In this document: positions 59,993 to 60,108 of the stretch, piece by piece
Layout: every line of letters begins with the position of its first letter
Numbering within the stretch: the stretch's first letter is position 1
Assembly: GCF_055900595.2 (NCBI RefSeq)
Contig: NZ_CM148325.1
Length of the DNA stretch: 64,000 nucleotides
Strand: one strand, 5' to 3'
The notes under the pieces: generated by a model
Databases searched by the model: none
What the model was told of the DNA's origin: nothing
The model's input: the letters and a program-made list of their open reading frames with translations, nothing else
Program-made: the position numbers and the translations under genes

Positions 59993-60011
59993 GAGAATGA
60001 TTATTATTGTC
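59993..60011 (+). promoter_or_regulatory. Fur box in the ryhB promoter
   Basis: GAGAATGATTATTATTGTC matches the Fur consensus GATAATGATAATCATTATC at 15 of 19 positions, immediately upstream of the RyhB 5' end. Confidence 0.75.
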
Positions 60012-60013
60012 TC

Positions 60014-60103
60014 GCGATCAGGAAGACCCTCGCGGAGAACCTGAAAGCACGACATTGCTCACATTGCTTCCAGTATTACTTAGCCAGCCGGGTGCTGGCT
60101 TTT
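60014..60103 (+). ncRNA. ryhB: small RNA RyhB (Fur-repressed iron-sparing sRNA), about 90 nt
   Basis: Sequence GCGATCAGGAAGACCCTCGCGGAGAACCTGAAAGCACGACATTGCTCACATTGCTTCCAGTATTACTTAGCCAGCCGGGTGCTGGCTTTT recognised from memory; located between yhhY and yhhX as in K-12. Confidence 0.9.
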
Positions 60104-60108
60104 TTTTT
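60082..60108 (+). terminator. RyhB intrinsic terminator
   Basis: Stem AGCCAGC / GCTGGCT followed by a run of 9 T. Confidence 0.85.

Follow-up and report, generated by a model that had tools for sequence, protein, structure and literature searches.

The small RNA gene ryhB lies in the intergenic region between yhhY and yhhX of the window, by which we mean the whole 64-kb stretch of DNA that was analysed. This is where the preliminary description of the DNA had placed it, and its positions for the unit, 59993-60108, are exact: the Fur box begins at the first, and the second is the last T of the terminator (Table 1). The gene order is ugpQ, yhhA, ggt, yhhY(-), ryhB(+), yhhX(+), yhhW(+), gntR, which is the K-12 order in reverse orientation, and the synteny gntR-yhhW-yhhX-ryhB-yhhY and the gene orientations are common to both. 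The two differ on the far side of yhhY, where K-12 carries about 3.4 kb containing yhhZ, yrhA::IS1E, yrhD and yrhB between ggt and yhhY, a segment missing from the window and likewise from strain Z0117EC0005. In the window ggt ends at 59354 (+), 49 nt from yhhY.

Table 1. Features of the ryhB locus, in window coordinates
Feature	Position	Strand	Remarks
yhhY	59404-59892	-	divergent neighbour upstream of ryhB
-35-like hexamer TGGACA (putative)	59978-59983	+	consensus scan; same in K-12
Fur box (Fe2+-Fur operator) GAGAATGATTATTATTGTC	59993-60011	.	19-bp consensus match
-10 hexamer TATTAT	60002-60007	+	inside the Fur box; last base 7 nt upstream of G60014
ryhB small RNA gene	60014-60108	+	100% identity to K-12 b4451; RF00057 at 60043-60107
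5' stem-loop of RyhB (predicted)	60018-60044	+	varies between genera; outside the Rfam model
Invariant core GCACGACATTGCTCACATTGCTTCCAG	60047-60073	+	27 nt, exact across genera; holds the target-pairing (seed) region
A/U-rich single-stranded linker UAUUACUU	60074-60081	+	unpaired in the Rfam consensus structure and in the predicted fold
Rho-independent terminator	60082-60108	+	stem-loop 60082-60100, then nine T 60100-60108
yhhX (oxidoreductase)	60226-61263	+	co-directional, downstream of ryhB

Identity of the RNA

The whole window was scanned with the covariance models of Rfam release 15 at their gathering thresholds. RF00057, RyhB, was the sole family above threshold and was found once. The match, on the + strand, covers the complete model (positions 1-67 of 67) with 83.1 bits against a gathering threshold of 55 (E = 3.6e-14); this score was the check that the preliminary description had proposed. 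Pairwise alignment of 59890-60230 with K-12 MG1655 gave 100% identity across 59890-60110, a stretch that begins 124 nt before the RNA and so takes in promoter and Fur box as well as the RNA itself. The curated K-12 record has an ncRNA here, ryhB (b4451, alias sraI, 'small regulatory RNA RyhB'), at 3580922-3581016 on the - strand, 95 nt long and between yhhX and yhhY, and this annotation projects exactly onto the interval given in Table 1, which begins with GCGATCAGGAAGACCCTCGCGGAGAACCTGAAAGCACGACATTGCTCACATTGCTTCCAGTATTACTTAGCCAGCCGGGTGCTGGCTTTTTTTTT. There is no difference from K-12 inside the gene; the first one comes 3 nt beyond the T-run, at 60111 (C in the window, T in K-12). We take the classical 90-nt RyhB to be 60014-60103.

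The preliminary description had recognised a 90-nt stretch identical to E. coli RyhB, and the K-12 identity together with the RF00057 match bears this out. We regard it as practically certain that 60014-60108 (+) encodes RyhB, an sRNA that is repressed by Fur and depends on Hfq, with promoter and operator at 59978-60013; we found nothing that speaks against this identity. The ryhB of the window is an already known gene in its reference K-12 allele.

A different family of Fur-regulated sRNAs, such as the PrrF type, or a chance resemblance to RyhB would be another way to read these data. With the Rfam cut-off relaxed to E = 1 for 59700-60400, PrrF (RF00444) was the only family to appear besides RyhB, with a weak match at 59978-60109 (21.3 bits, E = 0.37). 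This is far under the PrrF gathering threshold of 90, and membership of that family was rejected. Set against the score of the RyhB model and the base-for-base identity to the K-12 gene, the likelihood of a chance match or another family is vanishingly small.

We also considered whether the region encodes a small protein, as three ORFs exist mechanically: 60007-60192 (+, 61 aa, TTG start), 59915-60169 (+, 84 aa) and 59951-60055 (-, 34 aa). Both + strand frames, however, pass through the intrinsic terminator. Near 60137 the window and K-12 differ by a 1-nt indel, which alters the C-terminal sequence and the stop of each frame; the RNA part is invariant base for base, the reverse of what coding constraint would give. 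The TTG of the 61-aa frame moreover lies within the promoter, ahead of the transcription start. The + strand ORFs, frame-shifted in K-12 and crossing the terminator, were rejected, and a small protein is an extremely improbable explanation of the region.

Promoter and Fur operator

A consensus scan of 59800-60300 found one promoter-like site, in which TGGACA and TATTAT are separated by an 18-nt spacer and 10 of the 12 positions match. The 5' end of ryhB is G60014 according to the K-12 annotation, and from its position relative to this base TGGACA probably acts as the -35 element. When the Fur consensus GATAATGATAATCATTATC was scanned over the 64 kb with up to 3 mismatches allowed, it matched at a single place, the box at 59993-60011, with 16/19 positions on the - strand (3 mismatches). 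Direct counting on the + strand gives 15/19 (4 mismatches), the figure reported in the preliminary description, and 100 dinucleotide-preserving shuffles held no match at up to 3 mismatches. The overlap of the box with the putative -10, also described there, is complete: TATTAT lies entirely within it.

A cluster of Fur sites directly before ryhB is known from K-12, the strongest scoring 25.2 bits at -15, and was confirmed by gel shift (PMC2189734). The ryhB Fur site had earlier been selected in vivo by Vassinova and Kozyrev, as cited in the same paper. The sequence features expected of the RyhB operator are thus present in the window, and as binding of Fur to the identical K-12 site has been published (PMC2189734), the box is probably a functional operator.

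Further upstream, in the divergent yhhY-ryhB intergenic region, there is a direct repeat TCAAATGC-GAG-TCAAATGC (11-nt spacing) at 59940-59958. It is followed at 59960-59973 by a palindromic tract rich in A/T, TTTTTTTGCAAAAA, which at roughly -54 to -41 relative to ryhB occupies the place of an UP element. Repeat and tract could be a candidate regulator site for yhhY or ryhB, although short two-copy repeats often arise by chance.

Terminator, fold and pairing core

The terminator scan found a stem AGCCAGC/GCTGGCT of 7 pairs, 5 of them G-C, with a loop of 5; T60100 doubles as the closing base of the stem and the first of the nine T. The GC stem followed by nine T that had been described at the RNA end is therefore as stated. 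The rest of the fold is less distinctive. In the minimum-free-energy structure UCAGG at 60018-60022 pairs with CCUGA at 60040-60044 to form the predicted 5' stem-loop, a helix that is lost from the centroid structure. Folded in full, the RNA reaches -20.7 kcal/mol and is no more stable than shuffled sequences (z = 0.16), a value that is uninformative, counting neither for nor against an RNA gene.

The core contains an internal 9-nt tandem repeat, with the unit ACATTGCT at 60052-60059 and 60061-60068. RyhB nucleotides 38-46, GACAUUGCU (60051-60059), are exactly complementary to K-12 sodB from -4 to +5, AGCAAUGUC, across the start codon. We also calculated the full-length RyhB:sodB duplex, with intramolecular structure ignored, at -35 kcal/mol; as 55 of 500 shuffled RyhB sequences did at least as well, this energy is not significant and was dropped as evidence of sodB targeting, leaving the 9-nt seed match as the informative part.

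A natural variant of the seed region occurs in E. coli 23AR0151 (NZ_CP195448.1, L124 301-445), a clinical isolate from sputum in New Zealand. Its RyhB pairing core has a 9-nt tandem duplication, ACATTGCTC, giving three copies of ACATTGCT as against the usual two, which occupy 60052-60068 in the window. It is the sole genome of the 5424 with a match (see below) to fall in the 90-95% identity band for the ryhB stretch.

Conservation

We searched 5426 complete E. coli genomes for the 136-nt stretch of promoter and RNA (59975-60110). It was found in 5424 of them, each time on the chromosome and at the orthologous position between yhhX and yhhY, and was at least 99% identical in 5413 of these. The ryhB region found no counterpart in two of the 5426 genomes, while in a few it matched at up to three places; both groups could reflect deletions, assembly problems or duplications. 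RefSeq E. coli records annotated by PGAP (NZ_CP098223.1, NZ_CP195448.1 and others) have no feature under the ryhB match, whereas the curated K-12 record has the ncRNA. The preliminary description had offered the gene as a matter of complete annotation and not of novelty, and this is how it stands.

Beyond E. coli, we looked for perfect copies of the 27-nt core GCACGACATTGCTCACATTGCTTCCAG, with each species represented by a single genome, and found at least 120 DNA stretches that carry it, from Enterobacterales, Aeromonadaceae and Vibrionaceae. Among the matches listed, 117 of 119 usable instances had a Fur-like site (up to 5 mismatches) within 120 nt upstream of the core, and in 101 of these 117 the site had no more than 4 mismatches. 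As a control, 50 of 2380 random 120-nt stretches from the same loci (about 2%) reached the 5-mismatch level. We counted as a terminator any hairpin with six or more uninterrupted pairs and a T-tail behind it; one began within 40 nt past the core in 109 of 122 instances among the matches listed; those without a nearby terminator were mostly from Vibrionaceae, and there the sequence runs on past the core.

The terminator stems vary between genera yet still pair, as in AGCCAGC/GCTGGCT, GCCCGC/GCGGGC, GGCCGGC/GCCGGCC and GGGCCAG/CTGGCCC. RNAalifold recovered just 3 terminator pairs from an alignment of 26 sequences, MAFFT having shifted some of the stems, and we counted the full 7-bp helix explicitly instead. 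Across the 26 sequences 88.3% of cells were paired, compared with 79.0% in shuffles, and 21 cells had changed on both sides where 6.3 were expected, a number reached in none of 500 shuffles. Sliding the partners by 1-3 columns lowered the pairing to 27-55%. The central stem carries no covariation information because the loci were chosen by the exact core, which leaves its pairs invariant. Upstream Fur box, invariant core and covarying terminator have thus been conserved together, which is what one would expect of RyhB.

In many genera the core is present twice. Two copies at separate loci were seen in Yersinia, Photorhabdus, Serratia, Pantoea, Pectobacterium, Hafnia, Mixta and Acerihabitans (locus pairs L006/L007, L012/L013, L017/L018, L027/L028, L038/L039, L054/L055, L061/L062 and L074/L075). 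Salinivibrio costicola (L082, 10920-11253) has tandem core copies about 300 nt apart, each with a Fur-like box, and the same arrangement is seen in L086.

The yhhX leader

The yhhX leader (60109-60225) is the variable part of the locus. It differs from K-12 by four substitutions and one 1-nt indel, all within 60111-60201, and the segment 59900-60250 is at least 99% identical in just 11 of 5424 E. coli genomes, while the adjoining ryhB is nearly invariant. The leader also holds a second, weak terminator-like hairpin at 60131-60147, with two of the K-12 differences in or beside it.

The closeness of yhhX raises the question of whether the stretch is better understood as the 5' leader of its mRNA, the Fur-controlled promoter serving mainly to express yhhX and the hairpin acting as an attenuator. 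Reading in the same direction, yhhX begins only 117 nt after the RNA gene, and the promoter scan of 59800-60300 gave no second site from which the gene might be read. Vassinova and Kozyrev, as cited in PMC2189734, first assigned the Fur site to yhhX, and transcription of yhhX from the ryhB promoter has been described as possible (PMC8896160). Against this, the terminator is strong, with nine T behind a GC-rich stem of 7 bp; the whole unit of Fur box, core and terminator is kept in genera whose downstream sequence is unrelated; and in K-12 the identical RNA is established as a regulator that acts in trans. The first two of these points make read-through an addition to the sRNA and not an alternative to it: it may take place alongside the sRNA but cannot replace it as the explanation, and we consider a mere yhhX leader very unlikely.

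Incomplete termination at ryhB would put yhhX under the control of Fur and iron, and the lineage-specific changes in this strain's leader (60111-60201) would then alter the coupling. We think this improbable. If it were true, only the strain-specific modulation of the coupling would be new, as read-through itself has already been suggested (PMC8896160).

Discussion

Since the window does not differ from K-12 in the gene, its promoter or its Fur operator, what is known of K-12 RyhB should hold for the source strain. In K-12, Fe2+-Fur represses ryhB and iron starvation lifts the repression; RyhB then pairs with about 20 mRNAs of iron-using proteins, sodB and sdhC among them, which keeps them from being translated and promotes their decay by the RNase E degradosome (PMC8544716). 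It is a class I Hfq-dependent sRNA, for which Hfq uses its proximal face and its rim (PMC8544716). Induction by iron starvation or by loss of Fur, dependence on Hfq and repression of sodB and sdhCDAB are thus established for the identical K-12 RNA (PMC8544716), and by analogy would be expected here.

Transferred to the source strain on the strength of this identity, the mechanism would run as follows. With sufficient iron, Fe2+-Fur on the operator would cover the -10 and block RNA polymerase. The arrangement of the operator is observed and Fur binding to the same sequence is published; the occlusion of polymerase at the -10 is what we infer from them. When iron is scarce, Fur would leave the operator and a primary transcript of about 90-95 nt would be made from G60014 to the terminator. 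The start point is taken from the K-12 annotation, while the anatomy and covariation of the terminator come from the present analysis. Hfq would bind the 3' poly-U tail and the A/U-rich linker, UAUUACUU; by analogy with class I Hfq-dependent sRNAs (PMC8544716), contact with the linker seems likely. The core would then pair with mRNAs whose products use iron but are not essential, for example sodB and sdhCDAB, at their translation-initiation regions, blocking ribosome binding and recruiting the RNase E degradosome, and iron would be spared.

RyhB is a central iron-sparing regulator of E. coli, but it is missed by views of the genome based on ORFs and by PGAP in almost all E. coli genomes. The value of recording it here lies solely in filling this gap in annotation, and no open question is advanced.

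The comparison with known systems is closest for K-12, whose ryhB unit is the same base for base and sits in the same gene neighbourhood. The RyhB genes of other Enterobacterales, Aeromonas and Vibrionaceae, with Yersinia RyhB1/RyhB2 as an example of such homologues and paralogues and Salmonella RyhB-2/IsrE as a further one, share the exact 27-nt core and the upstream Fur box, and mostly a terminator 8-20 nt past the core (among the matches listed). They differ in the length of the 5' part, the Fur box beginning 50-118 nt ahead of the core, and in copy number, as many other genera have two copies while a single one is present in the window, as is general in E. coli. The Vibrionaceae versions extend well past the core and lack the near terminator seen in the window. 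PrrF1 and PrrF2 of Pseudomonas are functional analogues, Fur-repressed sRNAs that silence mRNAs of iron-using proteins, but judged by their model they are not homologous to the RNA of the window.
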